IMG/VR virus record: IMGVR_UViG_3300037851_000057
Span: 1-64,000 of that record
DNA: 64,000 nucleotides
From: a virus
Strand: one strand, 5' to 3'
Shown: one piece after another, positions 10,715 through 33,557 of the stretch
Layout: every line of letters starts with the position of its first letter
How positions within the stretch are numbered: position 1 is the first letter of the stretch
Position numbers and translations under genes: made by a program
The notes under the pieces: model-generated
Seen by the model: only the letters and a program-made list of their open reading frames with translations
The model's database searches: none
Told to the model about the DNA's origin: nothing

Positions 10715-10791
10715 GATGGCCTCCACAGACTATTGAGTCCCCGTCCCCGGTTTCGGGAACATCCTACCACGCCAAAAACAGCGTGCGACGA

Positions 10792-16564: not shown

Positions 16565-16602
16565 CTTGATTCTGATTATACAGAATCAAGCGCCAATGTC
16601 AA
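16565..16602 (-). promoter_or_regulatory. promoter/operator module P1: TTGACA-16 nt-TATAAT with 10-bp inverted arms flanking the -10 box
   Basis: Minus strand: TTGACAttggcgCTTGATTCTGTATAATCAGAATCAAGgagg. -35 = 16597-16602. -10 = 16575-16580. Arms 16565-74 and 16581-90 match 10/10. Confidence 0.7.
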
Positions 16603-16603
16603 G

Positions 16604-16888
16604 TCAACCTTCGGCCCGCGTGTCCTTCCACATGGAAGGGCCGGTCACGTACACCTGGAAGTTGGCCACGATGCTGGAAAGGTACGCCGAGTAGTTCTCG
16701 GTGTGCGTCCACACGCCCCCGCTCACGTCCATCCGCGCCATCGGCCGCGCCAAGTGAACCAGGGGCTCGTGACCTTCCACGGCCTCGATGCGGGTGATGA
16801 TACTGGAGCCGAAGGCGCCCTCGAACGATTGCACTACGTCACCAACGGCCACTTCGCTTGCGTCTTGGTACTTGCGGGTTTCTTGCAT
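16604..16888 (-). CDS. hypothetical protein (94 aa)
   Basis: ATG 16888 after AAGGAGAGCGACC. The only gene between promoter copies P2 and P1. Confidence 0.6.
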   Translation of the reverse strand: MQETRKYQDASEVAVGDVVQSFEGAFGSSIITRIEAVEGHEPLVHLARPMARMDVSGGVWTHTENYSAYLSSIVANFQVYVTGPSMWKDTRAEG

Positions 16889-16897
16889 GGTCGCTCT

Positions 16898-16936
16898 CCT
16901 TGATTGTCATTATACACAATCAAGGGAGCGTGTCAA
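16898..16936 (-). promoter_or_regulatory. promoter/operator module P2
   Basis: Minus strand: TTGACAcgctcCCTTGATTGTGTATAATGACAATCAAGGagagcgaccATG. -35 = 16931-36. -10 = 16909-14. A-tract (UP-like) just upstream of -35. Confidence 0.7.
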
Positions 16937-16973
16937 CACGATTCCAGTCTTTTTTTCTGGGGACGATCCAGGG

Positions 16974-17468
16974 TCAGTTGGTAGTGGGAGCGCCGTGCGC
17001 TTCCAGCATCGCCGGCATGGTGTCATCCACCGCGGCTTGCTGGACTTGCTGGAAGGATGGGAGCCGGGCCGCCTTGAACTCGGACACGTCAACCGCCACG
17101 GCCGTCTCCCCGACAACAGGCGCCAGGGCTCCGTGTTCCTCGGGCGCCACCGGGGGCCTGAGGGCGGGGCTCGGAGTCGGGGGGCCCACCGCGGGGGCCT
17201 CGATGGCGTGCGCCTTCTCCAGCTTGTCCAGCCGAAGGGCCACCTCGTCCAGCCGTCCGGCCAACAGCTCGTAGACGCCTTGCTGAGTCCGGGAGGCCAT
17301 CGCCTTCTCGATGATGGCGTCTACCCGGTTCCAGATCGCGCCGCCGAAGCCAGCCAGGGCCGCGAGCACGAGGGCGAGGGCCTTCCAGTCAACGGCCGCC
17401 AACGCCTTGATGCACCGGAGAATGAGGGGGTCTTTGGGGTTGTCCTTGGTGGGCTCAGTATCGCTCAT
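16974..17468 (-). CDS. membrane protein (164 aa, one TM helix)
   Basis: TM segment ALALVLAALAGFGGAIW, then coiled-coil and P-rich regions. Confidence 0.6.
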   Translation of the reverse strand: MSDTEPTKDNPKDPLILRCIKALAAVDWKALALVLAALAGFGGAIWNRVDAIIEKAMASRTQQGVYELLAGRLDEVALRLDKLEKAHAIEAPAVGPPTPSPALRPPVAPEEHGALAPVVGETAVAVDVSEFKAARLPSFQQVQQAAVDDTMPAMLEAHGAPTTN

Positions 17469-17491
17469 GCCCCCAAGCTACCAGAATGGGC

Positions 17492-17815
17492 TCAGTCGGC
17501 AAGCCCAGAGGTCCGGTCGCCAGCCAGGTGGTTCTCCATCTGGGCCAGCACCTCGCGCACGCTCACGATGTCCCGGGGGTCCATGAACGGGAAGGGCTTG
17601 TCGGGTTGGTCCTGGCTCTCCTTGCCGATGCGGAAGGACCGCCGCACGCCCCCATTGTCCAGGTTGGCCGCCTGGAGCACGAGCACGATGCGCCCATGCT
17701 GGAAGGTTTGCTCCGTCCGCCATTGGAGCGGCGCCCTTGGTTCCCGTTGTTCACGCTCACCGCCGCCGTCCCGATGCCCACGATGCTGCCGGCCGTTGTC
17801 GCCACGATAGCCCAT
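17492..17815 (-). CDS. hypothetical protein (107 aa)
   Basis: Trimmed to ATG 17815 after AGAGGAGATC. Basic/Gly-rich N-terminus. Confidence 0.55.
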   Translation of the reverse strand: MGYRGDNGRQHRGHRDGGGEREQREPRAPLQWRTEQTFQHGRIVLVLQAANLDNGGVRRSFRIGKESQDQPDKPFPFMDPRDIVSVREVLAQMENHLAGDRTSGLAD

Positions 17816-17865
17816 GATCTCCTCTTGGTGTTGTGCGGGAGAACCCCCGCGATTGAATCCAGCTT

Positions 17866-17991
17866 TCACTTGCCCCGCATTGCTCGAAGGGCCGCGCACA
17901 GTAGGTTGAAGGCACCGGCTCCCACCGCCCACCCAAAGCCGAAGGCCGCCCCGTAGAGGGCCGCCGCCAGAAGGGCGTACTGGTCAGGCAT
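17866..17991 (-). CDS. possible small hydrophobic peptide (41 aa, MPDQYALLAAALYGAAFGFGWAVGAGAFNLLCAALRAMRGK)
   Basis: Below the track size cut-off. ATG 17991 overlaps the mazG-like stop (ATGCCTGA). GC3-rich. One TM-like stretch. Confidence 0.3.
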   Translation of the reverse strand: MPDQYALLAAALYGAAFGFGWAVGAGAFNLLCAALRAMRGK

Positions 17992-18397
17992 GTGGAGGCT
18001 GAGCATCGCTTGGTAACTCCAGAGCCGCTACATTACCACGCCCGAGGGCCGTGGCAATGTCTGGAGGCACCCATCCCGGGGGCTTGAGAATCTTGCCGTC
18101 CGCCCGCCGCGGGCCGCCGTCCTTGGCCATGTTGGAGCGCTGCACTTCCTTCCAGACTTCTCGGAGGTCGATGCCCATGGTCACGGCCGCCCCGATGCAC
18201 ACGTAGATCAGGTCGGCCAGGGCGTCCGCCATCTCGTTGATGTCGCGGTCATTCAGGGCCTTGGTCAGCTCCGCCAGCTCCTCGGAGATCAGACTCGTCC
18301 GCATGTGAAGGGTCGCCTCGTCCGGCCACGAGGGCCGCTCACGTACCGGGAGGCCGAACTTCCGATGGAATGCCACCACGTCCTCGAACCAGCTCAT
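17984..18397 (-). CDS. mazG: MazG-like nucleoside triphosphate pyrophosphohydrolase
   Basis: ..LISEELAELTKAL..EMADALADLIYVCIGAAVTMGIDL..VQRSNMAK.. is the typical phage MazG EExxE/D helix pattern. Confidence 0.8.
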   Translation of the reverse strand: MSWFEDVVAFHRKFGLPVRERPSWPDEATLHMRTSLISEELAELTKALNDRDINEMADALADLIYVCIGAAVTMGIDLREVWKEVQRSNMAKDGGPRRADGKILKPPGWVPPDIATALGRGNVAALELPSDAQPPHA

Positions 18398-18630
18398 ACT
18401 CGTCTCCCATCATGTAGGGCCGGCTTCACCACCGATGCCGACCAATGCCCAACGTCACCCGTCTTGTTCCAGCCCACCGTGTCGTAGGGGTCATCCTCCA
18501 GCAATCGCACGTAGCGCTCATGCCCGCGTGCTCCAACCAACACACCCCGCACTGTGCGCCGGCATCCTGCCACAGGCAAACGCATCCACGCGCTACCGCG
18601 CTCGACGGTCACGACGGTCCCGAACTTCAT
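18394..18630 (-). CDS. hypothetical protein (78 aa)
   Basis: Trimmed to ATG 18630 (ATGA overlap with the upstream stop). Confidence 0.5.
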   Translation of the reverse strand: MKFGTVVTVERGSAWMRLPVAGCRRTVRGVLVGARGHERYVRLLEDDPYDTVGWNKTGDVGHWSASVVKPALHDGRRV

Positions 18631-18830
18631 ACCAGTTCTTTCTCCTCCGCCAGCCAACGGGGGATTTCCAAGGTGTCCGTGTCCTCATACTCGATCTGGC
18701 TCTTGGCTATCCAGACTTCCCCTTCATCGAACATGAACAACTTGGCCTTGTCCGTCTCATGCTTCACGCCGTAGTGGTCCAGGACCACGTTGCTTGGCTC
18801 GCTCGTCTTGCACTTCCGTGACTCGCCCAT
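18627..18830 (-). CDS. hypothetical protein (67 aa)
   Basis: ATG 18830 after GGAGGA. Motif ..KAKLFMFDEGEVWIAKSQIEY.. is common in small phage proteins. Confidence 0.55.
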   Translation of the reverse strand: MGESRKCKTSEPSNVVLDHYGVKHETDKAKLFMFDEGEVWIAKSQIEYEDTDTLEIPRWLAEEKELV

Positions 18831-19258
18831 CACTTCCTCCGCTTCATGGGCAAGCGGTCATCCTCATCGGAGCCGCCGCCGATTCCCGCCTCTATGCCAT
18901 CCCCGGCCTGGGGCCAACCAAGGGGCGGGTCCTTCTGCCACGCCGTCGCCCCCAGCTCCGCCCGCGCCTTGCGGATGCTCATGCCCATGGTCGCCCGCTT
19001 CCACAACGCCGTGGTGACCAAGGGCATCCATTCCGTGTCCAGCCCCAGCCTGGAGGCGAGGTCCGTGAAGGATTGCTCGCAAAGGGCGTTGACCTGTTTC
19101 AGGCCATCGCACCATTTCGCTTGTACCGTCACCACCCGGTTGCAGAGGGCCGTGTTCTCCCGAAGTAGGTGGTTGGTCCAGAGCGTCCACGCCAGCGCCA
19201 AGGCCAGCACGCCCGACACCACCGGCCAGAACCATCGCTTGCATTGCTGTAGTCTCAT
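18830..19258 (-). CDS. N-terminally anchored membrane protein (142 aa)
   Basis: TM WFWPVVSGVLALALAWTLW. Several Cys. Confidence 0.55.
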   Translation of the reverse strand: MRLQQCKRWFWPVVSGVLALALAWTLWTNHLLRENTALCNRVVTVQAKWCDGLKQVNALCEQSFTDLASRLGLDTEWMPLVTTALWKRATMGMSIRKARAELGATAWQKDPPLGWPQAGDGIEAGIGGGSDEDDRLPMKRRK

Positions 19259-19267
19259 CGTTCCAGG

Positions 19268-19669
19268 TTATCGGTTGCCACGCAATTCTGGAACGTCTAT
19301 CGACTTGCCCACGAGCGCCCGCATGTCCCGGAGATGAGCCTTGGTGGCCTCCAGCTCGCCCGCGCTCCCCGCCTCGCTCGGTCGCACGCCCACGCGCCAC
19401 AGCTCATCCATGAGCGCTTGCACTTGGTCCCGCCTGAGCTTGAAGGTCGGCTGTAGCTCTTGGCCTTCCTCCACGGGCTCGAAGGTCACATTGGTGGCCA
19501 TGTAGTAGCGGCGCCGGTCGTTGGGTGCCACGTCTCGCCCCATGAGACAGAAGGCCGTCCGCCCGTCCCACGGAACATGGTGACACCGGATCTCCAGGTC
19601 CGTTAGAGACTGCTCGATGCCCGAAGGCGGAAAGATCCTGGGCTCATTTCTTTCCATCTTGCTTTTCAT
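19268..19669 (-). CDS. hypothetical protein (133 aa)
   Basis: ATG 19669 after GAGGAGAGCGGCAC. Confidence 0.6.
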   Translation of the reverse strand: MKSKMERNEPRIFPPSGIEQSLTDLEIRCHHVPWDGRTAFCLMGRDVAPNDRRRYYMATNVTFEPVEEGQELQPTFKLRRDQVQALMDELWRVGVRPSEAGSAGELEATKAHLRDMRALVGKSIDVPELRGNR

Positions 19670-20051
19670 GTGCCGCTCTCCTCTTTCGCGTCCGCCCCTT
19701 CCATCGGTCGGCCGCCAGGTAGTCCACGAGCGCGATAGCTTGCTCCGTGGTAATCAACAGCTTCCGGTTGGTCGCTCGCTTCCAGTGTTGATTGAGGGCA
19801 TCACCCGCTCGCCGAAGTTGATGGCGGTCGTAGCCCGTCTCCCGGCTCAGCTCCCGGAGCGTTGTGGTCCCCTGGTCCAGGGGGTGACCAAGCGCCTTGG
19901 CTCGCTTGCGGAGGGCGTCCACGGACTTGCCCAACGCCTTGGCCATCTGAGCGTAGGACTTGGAGCCGATCATGTCCAGCAATCGGGCATCCAGCTCTTT
20001 GGTCCAGACGGGGTTGAACTTGTAGCACGGGCCTCCCTTGGTGAAGGTCAC
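19644..20051 (-). CDS. HTH DNA-binding protein, paralogous to the central domain of 36217..36846
   Basis: GTG 20051 overlaps the upstream stop (GTGA). LRELSRETGYDRHQLRRAGDALNQHWKR..ITTEQAIALVDYLAADRW matches FWELARVTGYSRCQLKRAQNALGQKWKR..ITEEQLEELVAWLAHDYW. Confidence 0.55.
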   Translation of the reverse strand: MTFTKGGPCYKFNPVWTKELDARLLDMIGSKSYAQMAKALGKSVDALRKRAKALGHPLDQGTTTLRELSRETGYDRHQLRRAGDALNQHWKRATNRKLLITTEQAIALVDYLAADRWKGRTRKRRAAHEKQDGKK

Positions 20052-20527
20052 TGGCCGCAACCTTCACAGCACTCGGGGTGGCACTTCTCGCCACGGGCCA
20101 TCCGCTCCAGGGCCTCGTCCTTGGGCATGGGCCAGCCGAAGTGGTCCGCCACGAGCTTGAGGATGGGCGCCCCGTAGTTCTCATAAGGGGCCGCCGCCAT
20201 CCGGTCCAACAGCTCGTCCTCCCCGGCCAGCCACACCCATGCCGTGAGCTTCTGGACCGTCCGGCTCGCCGAGATGCCCCGATGGTCCCGCGCCTTGGGC
20301 CAGCCGTACTCGGCCATGTAGTCATACGCCCTGGCCAGCACGTTCGCTCGCTTGTACGCCGGCCGGTCGCTGTCCCACTTGTCCTTGGTCACTTCGGGCT
20401 TCAACAGCCCCTTGGCGTGCTCATAGTCCAGCCACTCGAACAGCACCTCGGGCTCGAAGCACAAGAACTCCTGTTGCTTGGCCTTGATGCGTTCCAGTAT
20501 CTCATCTTGGGTCCGTAGCTTCCGCAT
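20048..20527 (-). CDS. hypothetical protein (159 aa)
   Basis: ATG 20527 after GAGGAGAGCGAC. C-terminal CHPECCEGCG. Confidence 0.6.
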   Translation of the reverse strand: MRKLRTQDEILERIKAKQQEFLCFEPEVLFEWLDYEHAKGLLKPEVTKDKWDSDRPAYKRANVLARAYDYMAEYGWPKARDHRGISASRTVQKLTAWVWLAGEDELLDRMAAAPYENYGAPILKLVADHFGWPMPKDEALERMARGEKCHPECCEGCGQ

Positions 20528-20629
20528 GTCGCTCTCCTCATGTTGAAGTGGCCCGGGCCGAAGGGTGCAGCTCCGACCCGGACCGAAGGGTGGTGAAGCG
20601 GAAACACACCAACACCACCCAACCTCGAT

Positions 20630-21007
20630 TCAGTGTTGTACGCCTGGCCGCCCCTTCCCCGCGTCCTCGGTCCCGGCCATCTGCCCGAGGGCCTCGGCCA
20701 TGCTCCCGAGCACGGCCGCGTTGGTCTTGGCCCACCGCCCATCCTGCCCGGTTTGGTCGATGGCTCGGCTCACGTCCAGCATGAGCCGCCCGAGATTGCC
20801 CACGAGGGTGGCCGCACCCACCAACAGCTCGGGCACGCTCGTCCCGCTCTGCCACTCGATACTCGCCTCCATGTGCTGGAGCGCCGAATCCAGCATCGTG
20901 GTGATCTCGATCTTGTGCGCCACGTCCGGGGTGGGCTCGTAGGGGATCTCCAGCGTCCCCAGCTCCTTGAACTCGCCTTGGTCACTCATGGCCTTCACCG
21001 CCTTCAT
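20630..21007 (-). CDS. hypothetical protein (119-125 aa)
   Basis: Track ORF. The alternative ATG 20989 would give only an 8-nt overlap with the upstream gene. Confidence 0.5.
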   Translation of the reverse strand: MKAVKAMSDQGEFKELGTLEIPYEPTPDVAHKIEITTMLDSALQHMEASIEWQSGTSVPELLVGAATLVGNLGRLMLDVSRAIDQTGQDGRWAKTNAAVLGSMAEALGQMAGTEDAGKGRPGVQH

Positions 21008-21194
21008 TGAACGAGAACTTGCCCATCATGAGCGCATCCTCCGCACCGATGACGGTGTTCCCCTCACACACCGGGCAATCGTACCCTTCCGCGTCCGGCT
21101 CGGTTTGCTCCCGCGTGAACGCCTCACAGGTCGTACACCACCCCATGAACAGGTCCCGCGCTTCCTCGAACTCCGACTTCTCGATCCGCTTCAT
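20982..21194 (-). CDS. zinc-ribbon protein (70 aa)
   Basis: CTTC...CPVC. ATG 21194 overlaps the upstream stop (ATGA). Confidence 0.5.
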   Translation of the reverse strand: MKRIEKSEFEEARDLFMGWCTTCEAFTREQTEPDAEGYDCPVCEGNTVIGAEDALMMGKFSFNEGGEGHE

Positions 21195-21478
21195 GCTGGC
21201 ACCTTGGCCTGGGCCGCGCAGTCGGGGCACACGTAGCGCACACCCTTGGGGTTGTCCGGGTCATTCCGCCAGTCGCCCATCGGCGCCGTGGACTGCTTCC
21301 CGCACTTGGGGCACAGCTTCCCCTTCGCCGTGAGGGAAAGCTGGACAGTCGCCTTCAAGCCCCGCACGCTCGCGTAGGCTTGGACGTTGTAGGCCAGCTC
21401 CATGCCCTCGCGCTCCATCTCGGCCACGAGCTTGTTGAGCACGCCCTCCAGGGCCACGCCAAGGTCCAGCTTAGCCAT
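21191..21478 (-). CDS. zinc-ribbon protein (95 aa)
   Basis: CPKCGK...CPDC. Trimmed to ATG 21478 (8-nt overlap, GAGGTGG upstream). Confidence 0.5.
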   Translation of the reverse strand: MAKLDLGVALEGVLNKLVAEMEREGMELAYNVQAYASVRGLKATVQLSLTAKGKLCPKCGKQSTAPMGDWRNDPDNPKGVRYVCPDCAAQAKVPA

Positions 21479-21914
21479 GGCCCACCTCATCCCGGGGGTC
21501 CAGGTGTCGCCCCATACCATCGGGCCCGAGGTAGTGGTCCACGTAGACGCCCTTGTGGTCATCCGGTCGCCGCCCTCGCTCCCGGGCATGGCGGAAGCTA
21601 TGCACGAGCTTAGGATCCAGCTCCAGCTTCTCCGCCCACACCTGGAGCTGTCGCACGATCTTGTGCTCCCAAGGGGCATCGAAGGCCGAGATGTAGACGG
21701 GCTTGCCCTCGCTCATCTCCACGAGGGCATGGACCATCATCTCGGTGGAGCGCCCGGTCCCACGAGTCCACACCGCTTGCTGGACTTTGGTGTCCCACAG
21801 GTCGGCGCACCCGCGCATCTTGCGGACGTTCTCCGCCACCGCCATGCACTTCCAGAGTCGGTTGGGTATGAGGCCGATGGCCTTGGCCACCTGCTCAGTC
21901 GTCATTGCTGGCAT
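21471..21914 (-). CDS. hypothetical protein (147 aa)
   Basis: Track ORF. TRGTGRSTEMM is P-loop-like but not canonical. Confidence 0.55.
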   Translation of the reverse strand: MPAMTTEQVAKAIGLIPNRLWKCMAVAENVRKMRGCADLWDTKVQQAVWTRGTGRSTEMMVHALVEMSEGKPVYISAFDAPWEHKIVRQLQVWAEKLELDPKLVHSFRHARERGRRPDDHKGVYVDHYLGPDGMGRHLDPRDEVGHG

Positions 21915-21916
21915 GG

Positions 21917-22312
21917 TCAGCTCCCCACCTTCTCAAAACGAACAGGCGCCGCAAGAGCGCTCGGCTTCACTTTCTCGAAAGGCCGCAGGCATACGGGGAG
22001 CCAATGGAGCTTCTTGTAAGAGCGGCAACGCTTCGCAATCGGCAGATTCAGCCGCCCGCCGTCAATGAGATAGGTGAGCATCTGGGCTGGCGCCAACGCC
22101 AACACATTATCTCGCACCAATTCCAGCAATGCTTGGGAGAACGTGTCCGACATACCCGCCCAGAAGATCACGTTGAACTTCCGCATGAGCCATTGGAAGT
22201 CGCCACGCGCCTCCTCGCCGAGCACGCGCTCCAGCTCAGGGAATGACACCCAATCATTCTCCCTCACGTAGGTCACAATCCGCTCTTTCATCCCGTCCAA
22301 GTTTTCAAGCAT
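21917..22312 (-). CDS. hypothetical protein (131 aa)
   Basis: ATG 22312 after GAGGAGAGCGACG. Confidence 0.55.
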   Translation of the reverse strand: MLENLDGMKERIVTYVRENDWVSFPELERVLGEEARGDFQWLMRKFNVIFWAGMSDTFSQALLELVRDNVLALAPAQMLTYLIDGGRLNLPIAKRCRSYKKLHWLPVCLRPFEKVKPSALAAPVRFEKVGS

Positions 22313-22577
22313 CGTCGCTCTCCTCATCCTCCCACGGGTAAGGAACTTCTGAGGGATGGCACCTAAAGCAAATGTGGAACGTCACAGGTTCGCCGTCCTC
22401 AGTCTCGTCCAGCACGTCCTCCCTTACCGCGGGGTCTATCTCGATGGAGTAGTCCTTCGCTTCCTTTTCCGACACCCCCTGCAAACAACCCGAACAGAAG
22501 GACGCACCACAAGAATCACACTCCAGAAACTCAAAAGGCTTGTCCTCCTCACAACCACAGCTCTCACAGTTGCTCAT
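22305..22577 (-). CDS. acidic Cys-rich protein (90 aa)
   Basis: CESCGC..CDSCG..CSGC..CFRC. TGATG junction with the upstream gene. Confidence 0.55.
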   Translation of the reverse strand: MSNCESCGCEEDKPFEFLECDSCGASFCSGCLQGVSEKEAKDYSIEIDPAVREDVLDETEDGEPVTFHICFRCHPSEVPYPWEDEESDDA

Positions 22578-23020: not shown

Positions 23021-23421
23021 CTCCCGCGGGGCCACGAGAACCCGCTCAGTAGGAGCCCAGCCAGTTGCTCGGCCAGGCTCGCCTTCAACGCATCCATGAC
23101 CGCGTGCCTACCGTCCAGAAGCGCCGCCTCCATGGGCACGCTCACCACCGCCTCCAGCTCGCGCCCGTTCACCTTGAGCCCCATCCGGTAGCTCACAAGC
23201 CCGGTCGCCTCGTTCTTGGAAGGATGCTCGGCCACCAGGGCCGCCTGGAGGGTGTTGTTGGTCTGCCCGACCACCGCATGGAAGCGGTTGTCCAGCTCGT
23301 TGCCCACTTCCTCCTGGATGATCTCCCAGAGGGCCTGGGCCCGCGCCTTCTTGTCCTCATCGCCGAGCCGGTTTGCCAGCTCCCGAAGGAACTCGGCCGT
23401 TGGTGCCTTTCGTTCCGCCAT
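23017..23421 (-). CDS. hypothetical protein (134 aa)
   Basis: ATG 23421 after GAGGAGAGCGAC. Confidence 0.55.
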   Translation of the reverse strand: MAERKAPTAEFLRELANRLGDEDKKARAQALWEIIQEEVGNELDNRFHAVVGQTNNTLQAALVAEHPSKNEATGLVSYRMGLKVNGRELEAVVSVPMEAALLDGRHAVMDALKASLAEQLAGLLLSGFSWPRGR

Positions 23422-23638
23422 GTCGCTCTCCTCTACCACTATTGATGCCGCGAGGGGCCTTTCGGGAACCAAGAATCAACCCGTCCAGCAACCCGAGTAC
23501 CACAACCGCCTCGCCTCGTTCCAGCTTTTCTGCCAAGGGGCCAGCGTCATCCGCCGCCCTCGCCACTTCCTTGCGGAGCGTCAGCAACAGCCGATCCATG
23601 TGCTCGCATCTCGGGCATCCGCCCGTCTGTATCGCCAT
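23357..23638 (-). CDS. possible small CPRC-containing protein (93 aa as drawn)
   Basis: ATG 23638 after GGAGGTAGGA. The first ~58 aa look coding. The tail overlaps the next gene by 65 nt and looks like read-through. Confidence 0.35.
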   Translation of the reverse strand: MAIQTGGCPRCEHMDRLLLTLRKEVARAADDAGPLAEKLERGEAVVVLGLLDGLILGSRKAPRGINSGRGERHGGTKGTNGRVPSGAGKPARR

Positions 23639-23677
23639 TCCTACCTCCGTTCTCGTGGGGGACGTACCCCCGCCGAT

Positions 23678-23710
23678 CTACCACGCGCCTACCACGCGCC
23701 TACTACGTTC
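23678..23710. repeat. three tandem 11-bp direct repeats CTACCACGCGC / CTACCACGCGC / CTACTACGTTC
   Basis: Read directly in the 118-bp thyX-downstream intergenic region. One repeat per helical turn. Confidence 0.9.
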
Positions 23711-23756
23711 CACATTCCAGTCTTTTATACAGCCTTTTCCCTGGAATATCCAGGCT

Positions 23757-26245: not shown

Positions 26246-26257
26246 CTCGCTCTCCTC

Positions 26258-26494
26258 TCACCACTCGATGGTATGCGGGCCCGTCTTGAACAGAGGGGCC
26301 ACCTTCTCTTTCCAGCATCTCGGGCACACGTCGAACTCCTCCGTGGTCCCTCCGTCGCTCCCGTAGCTCTCCCGCTTCTCCACCTCGTAGGTGGTCACCG
26401 GGTCCCGCTTAAAGGGCTCACCACAGCAATCGCACAAGGTCTGGACCGTCACCTTCTCCTCACGGGTCACCGTCCTACTTTCCTCGACTCGCAT
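26258..26494 (-). CDS. zinc-ribbon protein (78 aa)
   Basis: CDCCGE...CPRC. TGATG junction upstream. Confidence 0.5.
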   Translation of the reverse strand: MRVEESRTVTREEKVTVQTLCDCCGEPFKRDPVTTYEVEKRESYGSDGGTTEEFDVCPRCWKEKVAPLFKTGPHTIEW

Positions 26495-26772
26495 CACTTC
26501 CTCCCGTGTTCTCGGTCGCACAGCTCCTCGGCCGTGATGCCCAACCGAGCCGCCTCTTGTCGCAAGCTCAGCCCCCGAGCGATGCGGTCCTGGCGCCGGT
26601 TCTCGCCAAGGGCCAGCCGCGCCTCGAACCCCTCGTCCACCTCTCCCGTTCCGTTGCACATGAAGCATGGCATGGACCCGTACCCACCCGTCCGCTTTCC
26701 AGTCTTTGGATCCACACCATCCCAGAAGCACTCCATCGTCTTGCTACCGTGACAATGAGGGCACGTTGTCAT
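26494..26772 (-). CDS. zinc-finger plus XRE-like HTH protein (92 aa)
   Basis: CPHCHGS, CFMCNGTG, then RIARGLSLRQEAARLGITAEELCDRE (HTH). Confidence 0.55.
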   Translation of the reverse strand: MTTCPHCHGSKTMECFWDGVDPKTGKRTGGYGSMPCFMCNGTGEVDEGFEARLALGENRRQDRIARGLSLRQEAARLGITAEELCDREHGRK

Positions 26773-27430: not shown

Positions 27431-28071
27431 TCCCAGAATCTCCCGTACTCCCGCTCCCGTCTTTTCTCCCGCCGAAGTCTGGAACGCAAGCTCTCCTCCA
27501 TCCACGCCCGCATCCAGCTTTTCGGGTTGTCTCGATTCAGCCGCCGCGCATACCGCCGCTTGAGCTTGGTCACCCCTTTCAGGTTGTCCGTACAAATGTC
27601 CGGCCACACGTCAAAGTAGATGCAGTCCCAGCACCGCCCCGTAGGAGCTTCCCAGGTGAAGGCATCCGCCTCCACCACTGTAAGCTTGACCGCCGCCTCC
27701 CCCACGTAGCGCCGAACCGCCACCTCCACGAGCTGGATGACGCCCGCGGACTTCTCCAACACAAGCACCGTCCGCACCTCGGGCTTCTGGAGCATGGGCA
27801 CGAGCACCATCCCGATGCCGAGCCCCGCCACGAGCACGTCCCCATGAGCCAGCCGAACGGCCTCGCTGTTGGTTCGCTTCTCGTGCTCCCCATCGCTCAT
27901 CATGAGCCCACCGTTGACGAACAGCCGAGCCATCGGGCCTGGGGCCATGGGCATGCGGTCCCGGATCATGGAAAAGAGCGCGGCATCCCGGCTCACTTCC
28001 ACATGGTCCACCCGGGCGTTGCCCGCCTCGCCCGAGGGCACCACCTCCACCATCGGCGTCCAAGTAGTCAT
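27427..28071 (-). CDS. class I SAM-dependent methyltransferase-fold protein (214 aa)
   Basis: Motif I-like VLVAGLGIGMVL, acidic beta2 end VLVLEKS, DCIYFDVW. Substrate unknown. Confidence 0.5.
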   Translation of the reverse strand: MTTWTPMVEVVPSGEAGNARVDHVEVSRDAALFSMIRDRMPMAPGPMARLFVNGGLMMSDGEHEKRTNSEAVRLAHGDVLVAGLGIGMVLVPMLQKPEVRTVLVLEKSAGVIQLVEVAVRRYVGEAAVKLTVVEADAFTWEAPTGRCWDCIYFDVWPDICTDNLKGVTKLKRRYARRLNRDNPKSWMRAWMEESLRSRLRREKRREREYGRFWE

Positions 28072-28523
28072 GACCCACGCCTCGCGTGTTCCTGGCACAT
28101 TCGCGCCCCGCACCCGTGGCATTGCACCGGGTCCTCGCACACGCACGCCACGCACCCGCACAAGAGGGTCCGTGGCTGGGGCTTGAGAGTGCAGCTCGAA
28201 TCCACCTCGATGGTCCGGTCACACGTATGGACTCGACGGTCCACCGGATGGGGGCACTCCTCCGTCCCGAGGGCCGCCTCCACGTTGCAGGCATGGCACT
28301 TCCCCCGGTAGGGCCCCACCTCAGCCAAGAGGGCCGCGTTCTCGTCCTCCAGCGTGTTGACATAGGCTCGGAGCGATTCCAGCTCCCGCTTCACGTCCAG
28401 CAACGTCCAGCCCCGGCCTTGGGCCTCTCCCCGCCAGAGTCGCCACAGCCGCCGCCAGCCCGCTACCGTTGTGGGAATCCGAATCCCCTCGGTTTGCAGC
28501 TTCCACCATTCCTCGCCGATCAT
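28068..28523 (-). CDS. Cys-rich protein (151 aa)
   Basis: ATG 28523 after GAGGAGAGCGAGTC. CHAC..C..C..CGCVACVC..CHGCG..C. Confidence 0.55.
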   Translation of the reverse strand: MIGEEWWKLQTEGIRIPTTVAGWRRLWRLWRGEAQGRGWTLLDVKRELESLRAYVNTLEDENAALLAEVGPYRGKCHACNVEAALGTEECPHPVDRRVHTCDRTIEVDSSCTLKPQPRTLLCGCVACVCEDPVQCHGCGARMCQEHARRGS

Positions 28524-29173
28524 GACTCGCTCTCCTCGAACATCTCCGTTTGCTGGCGCTTCACGTCAACCAACTCGATGCCCCGCTTCTCCAGCCGGTC
28601 CAGCTCCTCCTCCGTCTCGTCCCCCTTCACCACGTACTCCACCACCCGGGGGATGAACGCCGCGAACACGGCCGGTTGGTCCAGGGTCGTCGGGACTCCA
28701 GCCTTCACCCGGAAGGCCACCTTCCGATGGGCCAGGTACACCACCGTCTTGCCCGGCTCGAAGCCCTTGGGGAGCGCCGGGATGCGCCGCGAGATGCCCA
28801 TGGCCTGGGCCTCGCGGGAGAAGGCGTCCGCCGTGTCGTAGTAGGCGCCGCCCACCCAGAGAAGGCCCGCCGTCTCGGGCATACAGTCGCCGACCACGCA
28901 CGCCCGACACGCGCTCTTGCCCGCCAACGCGAGGGGAGCCGCCACTTCCATGCTGGCGAACGCGCACACCGCGTCCGAGAACAGGGCCCGCGGCTTGATC
29001 CATTGCCAGCCCCTCGTGGGCTTCACGCCCGCGCCGCATGTCGGGCAGACGTGCAACGGGAGGGGGAGCTTGCCACACGGTTGCTCCAGCTTCCCGCCCA
29101 CGAGGTACAGCCCGCCCTTCTTGCGGTAACCACACCCACGCTCGGACTCGTAGCTCACTCGGATGGATGCCAT
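28520..29173 (-). CDS. hypothetical conserved-looking protein with CPTC/CRAC (217 aa)
   Basis: Trimmed to ATG 29173 after GAGGAGAGCGACC. First gene downstream of promoter copy P3. Confidence 0.6.
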   Translation of the reverse strand: MASIRVSYESERGCGYRKKGGLYLVGGKLEQPCGKLPLPLHVCPTCGAGVKPTRGWQWIKPRALFSDAVCAFASMEVAAPLALAGKSACRACVVGDCMPETAGLLWVGGAYYDTADAFSREAQAMGISRRIPALPKGFEPGKTVVYLAHRKVAFRVKAGVPTTLDQPAVFAAFIPRVVEYVVKGDETEEELDRLEKRGIELVDVKRQQTEMFEESES

Positions 29174-29205
29174 GGTCGCTCTCCTCAGTTGAGGGCTCGC
29201 GCCCG

Positions 29206-29243
29206 CTTGATTGTCATTATACAGAATCAAGGGGGCATGTCAA
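29206..29243 (-). promoter_or_regulatory. promoter/operator module P3
   Basis: Minus strand: TTGACAtgccccCTTGATTCTGTATAATGACAATCAAGc. -35 = 29238-43. -10 = 29216-21. Arms match 8/10. Confidence 0.65.
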
Positions 29244-29302
29244 GCGCCTAATCGGCGCCCTGTTCCCGAACGGAGAAGCGCTCCAGGTCCATGTTGCGTC
29301 GG

Positions 29303-29848
29303 TCAGCCATGCCGCACCTCGAATGGATCGTAGATCCGTTTCCGCGGTTTGTATTCAGCCCGCAACCGTAAGCCCAATTCCAGCTCTACGATGTCTCGCA
29401 ATTCCTGGACCCCCTTCTGACCCATCCCCCTCCATTCCAGGATCTCAGAGGCTCGGTAACGAACCAAATCCCCCACCGTTTTCACGCCAGCCTTGAGACA
29501 CGCATTGGCCGTCCGTTTGCTGCACAACCCCGCCAGCCCCAATATGAGCTTTGCCCGATGCTCGGTTTCTTTCTCCTCCGCGGTCACAGCTCGAAGGCCG
29601 CCCTGGCCATCCGCAATGATGCGCTGAGCGGGAACTCCTCCTCTTTTGGTCCCGCCAATCCAGATTCGGAAGTGGTTTTCCCCACAGTAGTGGGCTTCGC
29701 CTGGGGCCAGCTTGGCGTCACGGTAGTCGTAGTATTTCACCGTCCGTTGGTTGTGGTGCCAACGATCTTCGATCTCCATGATGTAGCGACCCGAACCGTC
29801 CAGGAATCCCCAAAACTGTCCAGGTTTTAGTTGCCCGATCTTGTTCAT
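29303..29848 (-). CDS. protein with C-terminal RNA-polymerase alpha-CTD-like helix-hairpin-helix domain (181 aa)
   Basis: ..LCSKRTANACLKAGVKTVGDLVRYRASEILEWRGMGQKGVQELRDIVELELGLRL.. resembles RpoA alpha-CTD. Lower GC than the flanks. Confidence 0.45.
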   Translation of the reverse strand: MNKIGQLKPGQFWGFLDGSGRYIMEIEDRWHHNQRTVKYYDYRDAKLAPGEAHYCGENHFRIWIGGTKRGGVPAQRIIADGQGGLRAVTAEEKETEHRAKLILGLAGLCSKRTANACLKAGVKTVGDLVRYRASEILEWRGMGQKGVQELRDIVELELGLRLRAEYKPRKRIYDPFEVRHG

Positions 29849-30360
29849 GGCTTCTGCCCCCTTGGCCCCACGGGCGCCAAAGGCACCGCCGCAATGCCAC
29901 CCACCTTCCCCTTGCACCGCTCATTCCGTTCCACTTGCGCCTTGAGGATGCGGTAAGCCATTTCCTTGGAAGCATCGGTCGCGTGTTTGTCGAACGCATA
30001 GCCAAACCACTCCAGCTCAGCATCACCCGGATCGTGTACCTCGGCATTAGGCATCGTAGGCGCCCAGCCGTATTGTTCAATGTCCGCCTTCTCGTAATGA
30101 ATCAACTCCGCGCACACTCGCGGAATCCCGCCATCAGAGGGAAAGATCACCGTGTCCACCACGAAGTAGGTCCCCTCATCAGGGTTGGGACCACAAAAGT
30201 CCACCCAATCCCCTTTCCTCGGGAGGGCCGCCAAGGTCACCTTCTGAGCATGGAACGCTCGCTTCTTGTCGCCACCTTTCCCCCCATGTCGGCCACCATC
30301 CTCGTAGTAGCCCACCTCAATACACAACACCTCAATTCCAGACTTCTCACTTGTCCCCAT
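29845..30360 (-). CDS. hypothetical protein (171 aa)
   Basis: ATG 30360 after GAGGAGAGCGACA. Confidence 0.5.
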   Translation of the reverse strand: MGTSEKSGIEVLCIEVGYYEDGGRHGGKGGDKKRAFHAQKVTLAALPRKGDWVDFCGPNPDEGTYFVVDTVIFPSDGGIPRVCAELIHYEKADIEQYGWAPTMPNAEVHDPGDAELEWFGYAFDKHATDASKEMAYRILKAQVERNERCKGKVGGIAAVPLAPVGPRGQKP

Positions 30361-31450
30361 TGTCGCTCTCCTCTCTGGGGTCCTTGTCCAACGTCCTATA
30401 GACACTCCCATGATGAATCCACTCACGGTCACCAATCCACGCCGGCCGCCGAAACACCTTCTGGCCTCGCATGTTGATATACCGTTCCGCTTGCAACAGC
30501 ATGTAATGACCCTTGCGTTGATGCGGTATCGGGGAAACGTGAGTCCCCACGGCCTCCCGCCCATGCACCGGATAGTGCCTAACCGGGTCCAGCAATACGA
30601 TCCGCGGGGCCTCCTCATCCAACCAAGGGAACAGGCGCGTTGTCTTGGCCGCCTTCTTAGCCACCTTCTCCGATTGCGTTCTGGAGACGGGCTTCACGGT
30701 CACAAAATGCTCGGCCGTAGAGTCCAGGTAACCCAACGCCGGCACAATGCTCCCCATGTTGACCCCTATCTTGTGATGGCGGACTTCTTGGCTGTCACGC
30801 CCCACTTCAATCGTAGAGTCCCATGACACCATGCAAATCTCGTTGGCACTGTTTCCACGAACGAACATGAGGGTGAAGAACCACGTCGGGCAGACAAAAC
30901 GAGCCCGGTCCAGACACTCGGATTGATCTTCACGAAGTTGACCCGGGATAGGCTCGTTGGTGAACTCGTCCCGCGCCTCCAAGCGCCAGGACTCCACCAC
31001 GTACAACACTCGGTCAGGGGTGAACACTATCTCCCGCCCCTTCTCCGTTCCGAACACTCCGGTCGGTTCTCGCTTGGGGACCGGAAAATGAAACCCAACA
31101 CGATCAACCGCCCGAATCCAGGTGACCTGGGCACCCATCCGCATCCGCCCCATGTCAGGATTCCAGGGCCCACCGGCCGCGAGACTTTCCTCCTCCAACT
31201 CCTCGATGTAGTCCTCCTCGGCCATCACACAGGGCCAAAGGTACACGGCGTCATTCCAGAGAAGCCGGGGCCATGGTAGGGGCTTTTCCGGGCCCATCAC
31301 CCAGGTACTCGGGGAATTGGCGCGATAGTCACAGTGTCTCAGGTCCACAAGAACCGCTCGCATCCAAGCCCGGGCCATCTCTAACCCTTGTGTGTGAGAC
31401 AACGCCCGCGCCACCTCCCAATCCGGCCGCAATCGTTTCAGGTCTGTCAC
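30347..31450 (-). CDS. hypothetical protein (367 aa)
   Basis: Start set to GTG 31450 because it sits exactly behind GAGGAGAGCGAC. The track TTG 31498 lies inside a hairpin. Lower GC. Confidence 0.55.
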   Translation of the reverse strand: MTDLKRLRPDWEVARALSHTQGLEMARAWMRAVLVDLRHCDYRANSPSTWVMGPEKPLPWPRLLWNDAVYLWPCVMAEEDYIEELEEESLAAGGPWNPDMGRMRMGAQVTWIRAVDRVGFHFPVPKREPTGVFGTEKGREIVFTPDRVLYVVESWRLEARDEFTNEPIPGQLREDQSECLDRARFVCPTWFFTLMFVRGNSANEICMVSWDSTIEVGRDSQEVRHHKIGVNMGSIVPALGYLDSTAEHFVTVKPVSRTQSEKVAKKAAKTTRLFPWLDEEAPRIVLLDPVRHYPVHGREAVGTHVSPIPHQRKGHYMLLQAERYINMRGQKVFRRPAWIGDREWIHHGSVYRTLDKDPREESDNGDK

Positions 31451-31465
31451 GTCGCTCTCCTCGAT

Positions 31466-31497
31466 TGCTGCAAAATCAACCTTCCCGTTTTGCAGCA
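31466..31497 (-). promoter_or_regulatory. 10-bp perfect-stem hairpin TGCTGCAAAA-N12-TTTTGCAGCA immediately upstream of an RBS
   Basis: Read directly. The loop contains the stop codon of 31476..32129. The hairpin ends 3 nt before GAGGAGAGCGAC-GTG. CTGCAAA half-sites resemble the 28-bp palindrome core. Confidence 0.35.
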
Positions 31498-32129
31498 ACT
31501 TTCTCGATCCGCTTGAGCTTGGCCTCCCACTTCCTGAGCATGGTCTTGGCCAGCTTCACCTTCCGTTGCCACTTGGCGACCTGGGCCCGGACGTGGGCGT
31601 CCTTAGCCGCCTTGCGTTTCGCCTTCCGCTCGTCCAGCTCGGCCGCTCGCTCATCCTCAGTCGGCACCGGGGTCAGTCGGCCCGGACCACAGGCCAGCTC
31701 ACCACGCCGGTAGCGCCTCACCGCTTGGATGGCGTAGGCGTCCGCGTCCCGCTCGCTCAGCTTCCCCCGCGCACCCCACACCCGTGATCCCCGAGGGTGC
31801 TTCTCCTGCCACAGGTGGCGGATCTCGTGGGCCATGAGAAACACGGCCAGCTCGAAGATGCTGTAGACGGTCCCACCCAGGTAGCCCTTCCGCCGCGCCT
31901 TCGCCTCGAACGTGTGCGGGTACTTCTCCCGCTCGGAGATCCGAAGGTTCACAAATGACCGCGCCGTCGCGTGGTAGCCTGAGCCCCGGGTGTACGCCAC
32001 GGCCCTCGAACCCCACTTGGTATCGGTCACGCGGATGTCGAAGGCTTGCTTCAACCCGGACGGCCTCACGGCCTCAGCCAGCTCTTTGAGCCAACCCGTG
32101 TCCAGCTTTGTGGTGTTCTTGAGGGCCAT
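31476..32129 (-). CDS. putative zinc metallopeptidase (HExxH) with Lys-rich coiled-coil tail (217 aa)
   Basis: FLMAHEIRHLWQ. The C-terminal 60 aa are K/A/E-rich. ATG 32129 after GGGAGGAACGCC. Confidence 0.5.
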   Translation of the reverse strand: MALKNTTKLDTGWLKELAEAVRPSGLKQAFDIRVTDTKWGSRAVAYTRGSGYHATARSFVNLRISEREKYPHTFEAKARRKGYLGGTVYSIFELAVFLMAHEIRHLWQEKHPRGSRVWGARGKLSERDADAYAIQAVRRYRRGELACGPGRLTPVPTEDERAAELDERKAKRKAAKDAHVRAQVAKWQRKVKLAKTMLRKWEAKLKRIEKVAAKREG

Positions 32130-32148
32130 GGCGTTCCTCCCGTTGGGT

Positions 32149-32346
32149 TCAGACTTCCTTCGCCGACACCGCCGTCATGGTGATGCCATCCCGATCCAGC
32201 CCGCCGCCGCCCCTTTCCTGCATCGCCGTGTTAGCGAGGTTGATGATCTCGCTCACCGTGTTGACCACTTCCTCGGGGTAGTTCTGACCATTCTCTGGAA
32301 CGGTCGTCTCGACGCGCACGATCACTTCAAACGCTTGCTTCTTCAT
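32149..32346 (-). CDS. hypothetical protein (65 aa)
   Basis: ATG 32346 after GAGGAGAGCGTT. Confidence 0.5.
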   Translation of the reverse strand: MKKQAFEVIVRVETTVPENGQNYPEEVVNTVSEIINLANTAMQERGGGGLDRDGITMTAVSAKEV

Positions 32347-32434
32347 AACGCTCTCCTCTACCAAAGGCGGCATCCCCTTGTTGGTATTGATGCCGCGAAT
32401 CCACGTTTGGAAACACCTCTCGGTACGATTCCAG

Positions 32435-32875
32435 CTACCCTTGCTTCACCCCCTTGTACTCCCGCCCCAAAAGCGCCGGCTTGACGCACTCCGAACCAAA
32501 GGGAAACGCCCCTTGGCTCTCAGCCTCGGGCCAGGGCTTGTCCGGGGTGGTCCATTCCCCCGTGGTGCAATTCAGCTCCAGCCACATGGCCTTCCGCTTG
32601 ATGACCTTCCCGCACCGCTCGCACCGGACACCGGCCACCCGGTCAGCCACCTCGCCCAACCCGGGGAGGGCCGCCTGGGCACGGGTCAGGGCTTCCGTGG
32701 CCGTGCTTCCGTAGAACCGAGCCACGGGCTCCAGCTTTTGCCAGGGAGGGATGCCATGCTCGTGGACGATCCCCACCTCGTAGACGGTCGGGATGCCCCT
32801 CGCCTGGGGTTGCTCGATGACGAGCCGGTCCAGGTTGTTCACCACGTAGATGTTGGGGTTGGGGTTCTCGATCAC
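32435..32875 (-). CDS. hypothetical protein with CERCGK (146 aa)
   Basis: GTG 32875 overlaps the upstream stop (GTGA). AGGAGG upstream. Confidence 0.55.
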   Translation of the reverse strand: MIENPNPNIYVVNNLDRLVIEQPQARGIPTVYEVGIVHEHGIPPWQKLEPVARFYGSTATEALTRAQAALPGLGEVADRVAGVRCERCGKVIKRKAMWLELNCTTGEWTTPDKPWPEAESQGAFPFGSECVKPALLGREYKGVKQG

Positions 32876-33156
32876 GGCCGCACCTCCTTGACCTTAGTTT
32901 CGTACCCGAACGCCGCGAGGGCCGCAGCAATGCTCCCCGCGCAAACCGCGTGGAGCTGGTTGCCGAGCCTGAGCGCCACCCAGCACTCGACTCGGCCGAT
33001 GTCCCCCGTGACCACCACGAGGGCGTCCCCGCCCCGCCACTTCCAGCATTGGGTGGTGGGGAACCACCGACTCATGACCGGATGGTCGTAGCGGAGCGCC
33101 ACCGTCCGCTTGTCGATGCTCTCCTGGGCCACGATGTCGATGGTCAGCTTCCGCAT
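32872..33156 (-). CDS. hypothetical protein (94 aa)
   Basis: ATG 33156 after GAGGAGAGGACC. Confidence 0.5.
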   Translation of the reverse strand: MRKLTIDIVAQESIDKRTVALRYDHPVMSRWFPTTQCWKWRGGDALVVVTGDIGRVECWVALRLGNQLHAVCAGSIAAALAAFGYETKVKEVRP

Positions 33157-33166
33157 GGTCCTCTCC

Positions 33167-33463
33167 TCAGCCGCGATAGGCCACCACGTCCACGCCGCGG
33201 CGGGCTTGGGCGTAGTCGTACAGGTCCGCCAACACGTTCGCCCGAGGGTCCACGTCCCCGCGGAGCGTCGGCCGGTAGCCGTGATTGGCACCGTCCAACA
33301 GCTCGTTGAAAGACGTGGCCGCGGTCAGCTCTTTGGTGAGCTTGTCCGCGATGGCGAACGCCTCGTTGCCCGCGTTCACGTTGCCCGCGGCATGTTGCGC
33401 CACAAGCCGCTCCACCTTCGCGCTCAGCACCGCCGCTTCCTGTTTCTTGCTCGCCTTGCTCAT
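33167..33463 (-). CDS. hypothetical protein (98 aa)
   Basis: ATG 33463 after GAGGAGAGCGACG. First gene downstream of promoter copy P4. Confidence 0.55.
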   Translation of the reverse strand: MSKASKKQEAAVLSAKVERLVAQHAAGNVNAGNEAFAIADKLTKELTAATSFNELLDGANHGYRPTLRGDVDPRANVLADLYDYAQARRGVDVVAYRG

Positions 33464-33493
33464 CGTCGCTCTCCTCTGGGGACGTTGTGCCCT

Positions 33494-33531
33494 CTTGATT
33501 GTGATTATACACAATCAAGGAAGCACGTCAA
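33494..33531 (-). promoter_or_regulatory. promoter/operator module P4
   Basis: Minus strand: TTGACGtgcttcCTTGATTGTGTATAATCACAATCAAGag. -35 = 33526-31. -10 = 33504-09. Arms match 10/10. T9 tract just upstream. Confidence 0.65.
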
Positions 33532-33532
33532 C

Positions 33533-33557
33533 AAAAAAAAAGCTGGAGTCAGTCCAG
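33533..33557 (-). terminator. possible intrinsic terminator (5-bp stem CTGGA/TCCAG followed by C then T9)
   Basis: Lies 15 nt after the stop of 33572..33793 on the minus strand. The stem is weak. Confidence 0.35.

Follow-up and report, generated by a model that had tools for sequence, protein, structure and literature searches.

What reads a set of promoters whose -10 boxes are each enclosed in an inverted repeat, and what do these promoters serve? The question is raised by 64,000 nucleotides of phage DNA (positions 1 to 64,000 of IMG/VR record IMGVR_UViG_3300037851_000057; this whole 64-kb stretch is called the window here), in which an earlier note on the sequence had described four such sites and proposed that they form one regulon under a common repressor. 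Our analysis of the window, the rest of the retrieved genome and related phages points to a likely answer: an autoregulated phage ribbon-helix-helix (RHH) repressor, encoded at 13641-13880, that would act on operators placed within dispersed early promoters for the host's sigma factor.

Read on the minus strand, the four sites share TTGAC(A/G)-N16-TATAAT, and in each the -10 box is flanked by 10-bp arms, CTTGATTSTS before it and SASAATCAAG after it:

33494-33531, minus strand: P4, TTGACG tgcttc CTTGATTGTG TATAAT CACAATCAAG; -35 box 33531-33526, operator 33519-33494, -10 box 33509-33504.
29206-29243, minus strand: P3, TTGACA tgcccc CTTGATTCTG TATAAT GACAATCAAG; outer heptamers perfect.
16899-16936, minus strand: P1, TTGACA cgctcc CTTGATTGTG TATAAT GACAATCAAG.
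16565-16602, minus strand: P2, TTGACA (inside TTGACTTGACA) ttggcg CTTGATTCTG TATAAT CAGAATCAAG.

The sites and the structure they share are as the earlier note had them, apart from the start of P1, which is 16899 and not 16898, and rereading from the minus strand gives the same arm complementarity (10/10 at P2, 9/10 at P1, 8/10 at P3 and 10/10 at P4). They are present in excess over chance: the pattern CTTGATTSTSTATAATSASAATCAAG has four matches in the window against 0.00 expected from shuffles, and TTGAC-N17-TATAAT has four against 0.06. When the window was scanned for sigma-70 promoters with spacers of 16-18 bp, only these four reached at least 10 of the 12 promoter positions; their matches to the consensus are 12/12, 12/12, 12/12 and 11/12 with a 16-bp spacer, which makes them sigma-70 promoters by sequence. 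No RNA polymerase or sigma factor was recognised among the window genes. Even at up to two mismatches, the heptamer pair CTTGATT-N12-AATCAAG is found in the window only around a -10 box. Because the operator spans about -22 to +4 relative to the transcription start, a protein bound there could only act negatively.

Each right arm is followed by the ribosome-binding site (RBS) motif GAGGAGAGCGA and an ATG. The gene starts given in the earlier note (16552, 16888, 29173 and 33463) are correct, but its arm-to-RBS distance of 9-29 nt is not: the motif lies 0, 0, 19 and 17 nt beyond the right arm at P2, P1, P3 and P4, and the ATG lies 12, 10, 32 and 30 nt beyond it. The RBS core GGAGAGCGA occurs 19 times against 1.1 expected, with 18 of the 19 on the minus strand. 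Another word, ATTCCAGAC, was considered as a further motif and dropped, its enrichment being only about twofold and mostly within coding sequence.

The window belongs to a 109,201-bp JGI contig, and the same genome is represented by two Logan contigs from SRR12687606, which are 100% identical to the window over a 23.6 kb overlap. A fifth, weaker operator promoter (P5) of this genome lies 2.4 kb beyond the window start (L023 position 14194, 14170-14233) and reads TTGACC-N17-CTTGATTGTG TATTCT CCTAATCAAG, followed by aggaggatgcc and ATG; its outer heptamers are intact though its -10 box matches at only 4/6 positions. It precedes a gene for a 2,912-aa polyvalent protein with SNF2, ART-PolyVal and LPD1 domains, the start of which is ambiguous (the gene caller places it 84 nt earlier in the same frame). 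The window sites and this fifth site would be best explained as promoters for host RNA polymerase carrying the housekeeping sigma factor, each with a built-in operator.

Are the arms conserved for their own sake? Related phages were collected with a neighbouring gene as the handle: the 164-aa protein encoded before P1 (16974-17468) served as query and gave 31 homologs, the contigs of which were fetched, so that the motif did not bias the choice. These relatives are metagenomic phages of 50-60% GC, with proteins about 45-78% identical to those of the window. In each fetched case, the gap of about 100 bp after the homolog of the 164-aa gene holds the operator, with 12 bp between the heptamers in contigs L019, L021, L029, L030 and L033 and 13 bp in L037. 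A metagenome scan with CTTGATT-N3-TATAAT-N3-AATCAAG yielded three related contigs of 51% GC, L017-L019. These three and L021, also of 51% GC, contain a 26-mer identical to that of P2; in L017-L019 the same RBS comes next, and the -35 box is no better than TTGCGC. A second L019 site faces the other way (1284-1309, plus), before a 99-aa open reading frame (ORF) at 1348-1647. Other sites in the relatives are as follows:

L029 (58% GC, 107-kb contig): TTGTGC-N16-CTTGATTGTG TATAAT CACAATCAAG; 26-mer identical to P4.
L030-32: TTGAGG-N17-CTTGATTTGG TATAAA CGTAATCAAG.
L033-34: TTGACG-N16-CTTGATTCTG TATTCT GGTATTCAAG; right heptamer ATTCAAG in L033.
L037, besides the N13 site after its 164-aa ortholog: TTGACA-N16-TTTGAATCGG TATACT TGTAATCAAG.

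Ten non-redundant sites, from the window phage and five related lineages, give the consensus Ttg...cTTGAtT.tGTATaatca.AaTCAAG. Across them CTTGATT and AATCAAG are invariant or nearly so, and are conserved at least as well as the promoter hexamers, which occur as TTGACA, TTGACG, TTGACC, TTGCGC, TTGCGT, TTGTGC and TTGAGG at -35 and as TATAAT, TATAAA and TATTCT at -10; the inner arm triplets and the spacer vary, and the triplets are often non-complementary. The two sites of L037, the 11th and 12th, agree with this pattern. Since the -35 box, the -10 box and the inner arm bases all drift around them, the outer heptamers are under selection of their own, as operator half-sites would be. This is the reverse of boxes kept and arms lost, the pattern that the earlier note had named as counting against it. 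The same data bear on the idea that the arms have no function and resemble each other only as a by-product of recent duplication or gene conversion of a promoter cassette. P1 and P2 are only 334 bp apart, so that a tandem duplication is possible, and all copies have the same RBS motif in common. However, the sequence between the -35 box and the arm and the sequence after the arm differ between copies, and the heptamers persist at 45-60% protein identity and across a 13-point difference in GC while adjacent promoter positions change. This conservation across lineages already largely refutes a duplication origin, which we consider extremely improbable.

If the heptamers are half-sites, which protein reads them? 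The gene most closely associated with them is the following:

13641-13880, minus strand: gene for a 79-aa RHH protein, basic in its N-terminal arm (HGGRRDGAGRKP) and acidic in its tail.

An RHH homolog lies downstream of the operator, on the same strand, in every operator-bearing lineage; it is nearest in L019 and L021 (0.3 kb), followed by L033 and L030 (1.4-1.6 kb), L029 (2.4 kb) and the window (2.7 kb). A hidden Markov model (HMM) search with the RHH family found no homolog in L006, L010 and L011, relatives by TerL, and the operator is absent there too. In addition, a half-operator with a -10-like box stands immediately upstream of the RHH gene in eight lineages. The left half-site is kept there in L029, L033, L039, L021, L019 and L037, and L030 has the right half-site instead:

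13903-13920 (window), minus strand: half-operator ACTTGATTTTG TATATG, directly upstream of the RHH gene.
L029: half-operator before the RHH gene, ACTTGATTTCG TATATG.
L033: half-operator before the RHH gene, GCTTGATTTCG TATATC.
L039: half-operator before the RHH gene, GCTTGATTCGC GATAGA.
L021: half-operator before the RHH gene, TTGACA-N6-CTTGATTGGG GATATA.
L030: half-operator before the RHH gene, TTGACA-...-TATAAC tttAATCAAG.

The copy at 13903-13920 had been reported as a degenerate half-copy in the earlier note, and its conservation in relatives, directly upstream of the RHH gene, gives it a meaning: a half-operator before the same gene across lineages is a signature of autoregulation and ties the RHH gene to the motif. 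In the window, its CTTGATT includes the TGA stop of the gene at 13914-14252 and it overlaps the tail of a weak terminator-like hairpin (13920-13940). This hairpin and a possible promoter of its own precede the RHH gene, which is on the same strand as the operator promoters, and the half-operator is possibly a weak or autoregulated RHH promoter.

The same linkage helps to weigh other binders. The operator could be real and bound by a different phage protein, either one encoded between P2 and the RHH gene or one of two small proteins encoded elsewhere in the window (a Zn-ribbon plus helix-turn-helix (HTH) protein at 26494-26772 and a small protein at 50167-50394). The first of these is:

15347-15805, minus strand: winged-helix-like protein of 152 aa, in the gene string from P2 to the RHH gene; HTH_20 match at E=0.0019, below the Pfam cut-off.

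Its position in that string and the weak HTH_20 match speak for it, as do homologs in L029, L033, L005 and L018, but it has no homolog in L019, L021 and L030-32, though perfect operators are found there. The protein at 26494-26772 resembles a Zn-ribbon plus HTH in sequence, but neither it nor the protein at 50167-50394 has a significant Pfam or PHROG DNA-binding match, and none of the three genes is preceded by a half-operator, as the RHH gene is. A different phage binder, judged in the relatives from fetched contigs that cover only the first of these three genes, is unlikely. Among the binders that the earlier note had named, co-occurrence, the half-operator and the RHH fold single out the 13641-13880 protein, which is the leading candidate for the repressor.

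A host transcription factor could also sit on the palindrome and couple the phage early promoters to a host signal. TTGAT/ATCAA is superficially like the half-sites of the FNR/CRP family. Yet the spacing TTGAT-N14-ATCAA misfits the FNR, CRP, LexA and Fur boxes; in this informal comparison LexA (CTGT-N8-ACAG), FNR (TTGAT-N4-ATCAA), CRP (TGTGA-N6-TCACA) and Fur were all set aside on spacing. A scan of 185,579 species genomes for the operator-promoter pattern CTTGATT-N3-TATAAT-N3-AATCAAG gave only chance matches, in AT-rich Bacteroidota and Clostridia, and an exact-pattern scan of IMG/VR gave only three chance matches, in AT-rich contigs, so these scans provide no host or prophage lead. IMG/VR searches for related loci with the amidase gene, the RHH alignment and the alignment of the 164-aa protein returned nothing. 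The tie of the half-site to a phage RHH gene across lineages favours a phage-encoded partner, and we regard a host factor as quite improbable.

Could the inverted repeat work without any protein, by extruding a cruciform or hairpin under supercoiling, exposing the -10 box as single strand and tuning promoter opening? P2 and P4 can fold into stems of 10 bp whose loop contains TATAAT (-8.8 kcal/mol, z about -8). This energy is not conserved, however: it is -3.5 kcal/mol at P3, -3.7 at P5, -1.1 in L033 and -2.3 at the second site of L019 (L019b), and the hairpins of L033 and L019b are no better than those of shuffles. In addition, changes in the inner triplets are not compensated, what the outer heptamers preserve is sequence and not merely pairing, and lone half-sites occur before the RHH gene. 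Variable inner triplets and a range from -8.8 to -1.1 kcal/mol fit protein half-sites rather than a required hairpin, and make a purely structural role very unlikely. The hairpin promoter of the N4 virion RNA polymerase has a conserved hairpin with a stem of 5-7 bp and a 3-nt loop. Unlike it, the sites described here would have a loop of 6-12 nt; their hairpin stability is not conserved, they have sigma-70 boxes, and they do not belong to that class.

The fold of the 13641-13880 protein also speaks for the preferred reading, a phage RHH repressor. A direct Pfam scan with the protein alone gave no match. A profile of 9 sequences reaches PF01402 RHH_1 proteins (E = 3e-7 to 3e-4 at a database size of 5.8 billion), and one of 34 sequences, compared with the PDB, matches the RHH domain of NikR (E = 1.2e-5 and 6e-4) as well as SvtR-like 2kel, MazE9 and CopG (CopG at E = 0.12). 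With the 34-sequence alignment, AlphaFold2 (AF2) gives a predicted local distance difference test (pLDDT) score of 92-97 for residues 30-60, and the model has an extended segment (30-37) followed by helices at 38-51 and 56-68, a strand-helix-helix order. An earlier AF2 run with 3 sequences had a pLDDT of 65 and an empty Foldseek result; the deeper alignment resolved both. The top Foldseek matches are now MazE9, NikR and the CopG-DNA complex, with probabilities of 0.82-1.00 and E-values that are not significant for so small a domain. By profile and model, then, this is a member of the RHH (MetJ/Arc/CopG; CopG/NikR) superfamily. The best-conserved part of the family is the N-terminal basic arm HGGxRxGAGRKP, and a conserved NRS motif opens helix B.

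We propose the following circuit. The RHH protein would be made from the gene string behind P1 and P2, and perhaps also from its own weak half-operator promoter. The operator would consist of the inverted heptamers CTTGATT and AATCAAG, 12 bp apart and bracketing the -10 hexamer, and RHH dimers or higher oligomers bound to it would block recognition of the -10 box. As the protein accumulates, its own synthesis and the whole dispersed promoter set would be turned off. Since the repressor gene lies behind promoters it would repress, the circuit predicts a burst of early expression, then shut-off. The earlier note's reading of a regulon under a common repressor gains support from the heptamers conserved across lineages and the linked RHH gene; the temporal switch that it also proposed is plausible, although the early timing, like the strength of the promoters, is something we infer.

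Several points weigh against this proposal. The half-sites are 19 bp apart from centre to centre, which is unusual for a small RHH protein without an oligomerisation domain. The family has two beta-strand subtypes, LVRFE and LVTLE, with the same heptamers; co-variation of beta-strand residues with the operator was sought and none was found, so no such correspondence clinches the pairing of protein and site. The RHH gene is a syntenic core gene of the clade, and its co-occurrence with the operator may partly reflect shared ancestry. One lineage with the RHH gene (L005/L035/L036) is uninformative, its contigs ending before the expected promoter. Finally, about 84 kb of the genome were inspected, and about 25 kb of the 109 kb lie outside the retrieved sequence.

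How does this arrangement compare with known switches? In the immI region of phage P22, Arc is a small RHH repressor whose gene belongs to the operon under its control. The Arc operator sits in the core of the strong sigma-70 promoter Pant, and expression during infection shows a burst and then shut-off. The window would resemble Arc/Pant in having a predicted RHH repressor in its own operon and an operator in a sigma-70 core. This operator is 21 bp long, lies between -35 and -10, is occupied by two dimers next to each other, about 11 bp apart, and serves one promoter pair. The phage of the window differs from this, with heptamers 19 bp apart on either side of the -10 box and the site shared by at least five dispersed promoters, and its operators are not of the Arc type; nor is the 13641-13880 protein a detectable Arc homolog by sequence, Arc appearing only at Foldseek rank 37. 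The nearest solved structures are CopG of pMV158 and the RHH domain of NikR, which have the common RHH fold. CopG recognises an element of 13 bp at the -35 box of a single promoter, and NikR reads inverted hexamers that are far apart (GTATGA-N16-TCATAC), a wide spacing that comes from its C-terminal tetramerisation and nickel-binding domain. In contrast to NikR, the 79-aa protein has no C-terminal tetramerisation or nickel domain, and its family is marked by the distinctive, highly conserved arm HGGxRxGAGRKP.

Many dispersed operators, often overlapping promoters, are also bound by the immunity repressors of temperate phages, such as P1 C1, the repressor of the conserved inverted repeats of phiC31, and that of the L5 stoperators. 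The window shares with these the many short sites, one proposed repressor and a large genome. It differs in that the roughly 84 kb inspected showed no gene for an integrase or for lysogeny and in that the RHH gene lies behind promoters it would repress. Another point of comparison is the repressors of anti-CRISPR (acr) genes, the Aca proteins, which act at strong acr promoters (PMC9410906, PMC6765145); the bacterial Aca families are HTH proteins (PMC9410906). As in Aca/acr systems, an inverted repeat lies in a strong-type core promoter, the regulator gene is downstream, and variable unannotated genes lie between; unlike in them, the regulator is RHH and not HTH, and several promoters are spread over a 109-kb phage rather than confined to one operon. 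In archaeal viruses, many early genes at dispersed positions have one anti-defence promoter motif in common (PMC11065993), and the window is similar in having fast-evolving, apparently early cargo behind a shared dispersed site. The arrangement proposed here thus belongs, on good support, to a well-known class of gene switch and is mechanistically ordinary; because it is textbook in mechanism, its value lies in annotation and discovery and not in a new principle.

The genes behind the promoters are small and carry no family annotation:

33167-33463, minus strand: first gene after P4, 98 aa, no Pfam or PHROG match.
28520-29173, minus strand: first gene after P3, 217 aa, Cys-rich, no family match.
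16604-16888, minus strand: first gene after P1, 94 aa, no family match.
16352-16552, minus strand: first gene after P2, 66 aa, no family match; the gene string continues to the RHH gene.

None of the four has a homolog in the fetched relatives, and no known anti-defence gene was found among the cargo by Pfam or PHROG matches. These promoter-proximal genes fit variable, fast-evolving early cargo, and small, unannotated, non-conserved genes together with a 2,912-aa polyvalent protein are what one might expect of an immediate-early set for host takeover or anti-defence. If the circuit is confirmed, it would define an early transcription programme for a phage clade without a cultured member, provide a compact and portable set (a 38-bp consensus promoter with operator and a 79-aa repressor), and flag fast-evolving orphans as the first-expressed cargo, the usual place of anti-defence and host-takeover functions. 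A bolder version, which we hold to be doubtful, is that the RHH protein and operator form an Aca-like master off-switch of a dispersed immediate-early anti-defence and host-takeover regulon, and that the N-terminal arm HGGxRxGAGRKP, not the beta-ribbon, reads the heptamers. If so, reading by the arm would differ from the recognition modes described for RHH proteins, and CTTGATT-N12-AATCAAG around a -10 box would be a search handle for new early effectors in this uncultured clade of phages of about 107-110 kb. Those effectors would include the four small orphans, the 2,912-aa polyvalent protein and, in a relative, a lipoprotein: the L019 ORF at 1348-1647, behind the plus-strand site, has a lipoprotein-type signal sequence and looks like a moron gene.

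The surroundings of the promoters show the place of this set in the genome. The window has 64% GC and all its genes are on the minus strand. In the direction of transcription, baseplate- and tail-like genes come first, then a replication block (helicase, DnaB, Pol A, UvsX-like, SbcCD, RuvC and a clamp-like gene) and an amidase. All four promoters lie in the 21-kb block that follows (34-13 kb), made up of small, mostly orphan genes along with ThyX, MazG, a methyltransferase and a protein resembling the C-terminal domain of the RNA polymerase alpha subunit (alpha-CTD); a ParB-methyltransferase, dNMP kinases, TerL and portal genes come after it. A near-identity search with the 16-34 kb region found no match among GenBank phages, the best GenBank-phage match of TerL is 33% identical (tblastn), and tRNA and Rfam scans of the window found nothing.

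Upstream of the promoters, the earlier note had seen A/T tracts before the -35 box in two copies, and both are there: at P4 a T9 run adjoins the -35 box on its upstream side, and upstream of P1 there is an A7 tract (16950-16956), which together with AAAAAGACTGGAA lies in 16941-16960. The T9 run is part of a further element:

33534-33557, minus strand: terminator-like hairpin CTGGActgacTCCAG plus the T9 run, abutting the P4 -35 box (from a consensus scan only).

This element could stop upstream transcription and also serve as an UP-like A/T tract. The word AAAAAGACTGGAA(A/T) recurs about 15-30 nt upstream of the -35 box at the P1-orthologous promoter in the window, L029, L033 and L037, and TTCCAGACA recurs upstream of the -35 box at P5 and at the L030 and L037 sites. 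These words may be an UP-like element or the site of a second protein.

The alpha-CTD-like gene lies directly upstream of P3 (29303-29848, minus strand, 181 aa; PF03118, 28 bits), in a block of low GC at third codon positions (29303-31450). Its PDB alpha-CTD matches have E-values of about 1e-4, the best being a mycobacterial alpha, and in the alignment read by eye the R265 equivalent and the helix-hairpin-helix motif look retained. The protein could compete for UP elements or activators, or act as a decoy for them.

The window contains five copies of a second bipartite motif, GTT(C/T/A)CC-N16-CATCAATA, against 0.02 expected:

23440-23469, minus (coding) strand: second motif.
32385-32414, minus (coding) strand: second motif.
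45250-45279, minus (coding) strand: second motif.
49413-49442, minus (coding) strand: second motif.
54379-54408, minus (coding) strand: second motif.

Four of the five copies are just upstream of an RBS and start codon, and the remaining one overlaps the helicase gene at its end, with the next start about 145 nt further on. The -10 word of this motif was not seen in the relatives. It may mark a phage-specific promoter class, perhaps middle, read by some factor.

Other relatives show variants of the same theme. L006 (TerL 63% identical, 110-kb contig) has two near-consensus sigma-70 promoters, at 1402-1430 and 8661-8689, with a different inverted repeat, ACGGC-N5-GCCGT, in the -35/-10 spacer, and no RHH homolog was detected within its fetched 21.5 kb; the same architecture with another operator suggests a swapped repressor. 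In L013 (2400-2480, minus), TTGATT-N11-AATCAA is centred on the -35 box and CTCAA-N7-TTGAG surrounds the -10 box of a leftward promoter. This contig has two divergent RHH paralogs (3530-3796 plus and 366-581 minus), one of which ends the leftward-promoter operon while the other lies behind a degenerate operator. A distant chromosomal CopG-family homolog with the same N-terminal arm is found in a Pirellulales bacterium metagenome-assembled genome (GCA_020851115.1; L040 3900-4003). Upstream of its gene is TTGACTTGAC-N8-TTGATT-N4-TATATAAT, close to the TTGACTTGACA-N6-CTTGATT-N3-TATAAT of P2; the resemblance adds to the linkage between the RHH gene and the half-site, and may be a hint of the host phylum or reflect a family-wide half-site preference. 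In L033, the product of the TerL gene (8458-11463) has 1,001 aa and weakly matches Hint_2, which suggests that this predicted terminase carries an intein insertion.

Two non-coding gaps in the window also have structure. The one of 368 bp at 55965-56332 separates structural-like genes from the helicase gene and could be an origin or a transcription-unit boundary; within it are a perfect hairpin, GGCTTGACTGCAAATTTGCAGTCAAGCC, a stretch rich in A and clustered GATC/GGATC repeats. The other, a 118-bp gap upstream of the gene at 23357-23638, contains a tandem direct repeat, GTAGGCGCGTG GTAGGCGCGTG GTAG (23660-23700, minus strand), adjoined by a CCAG...CTGG hairpin.

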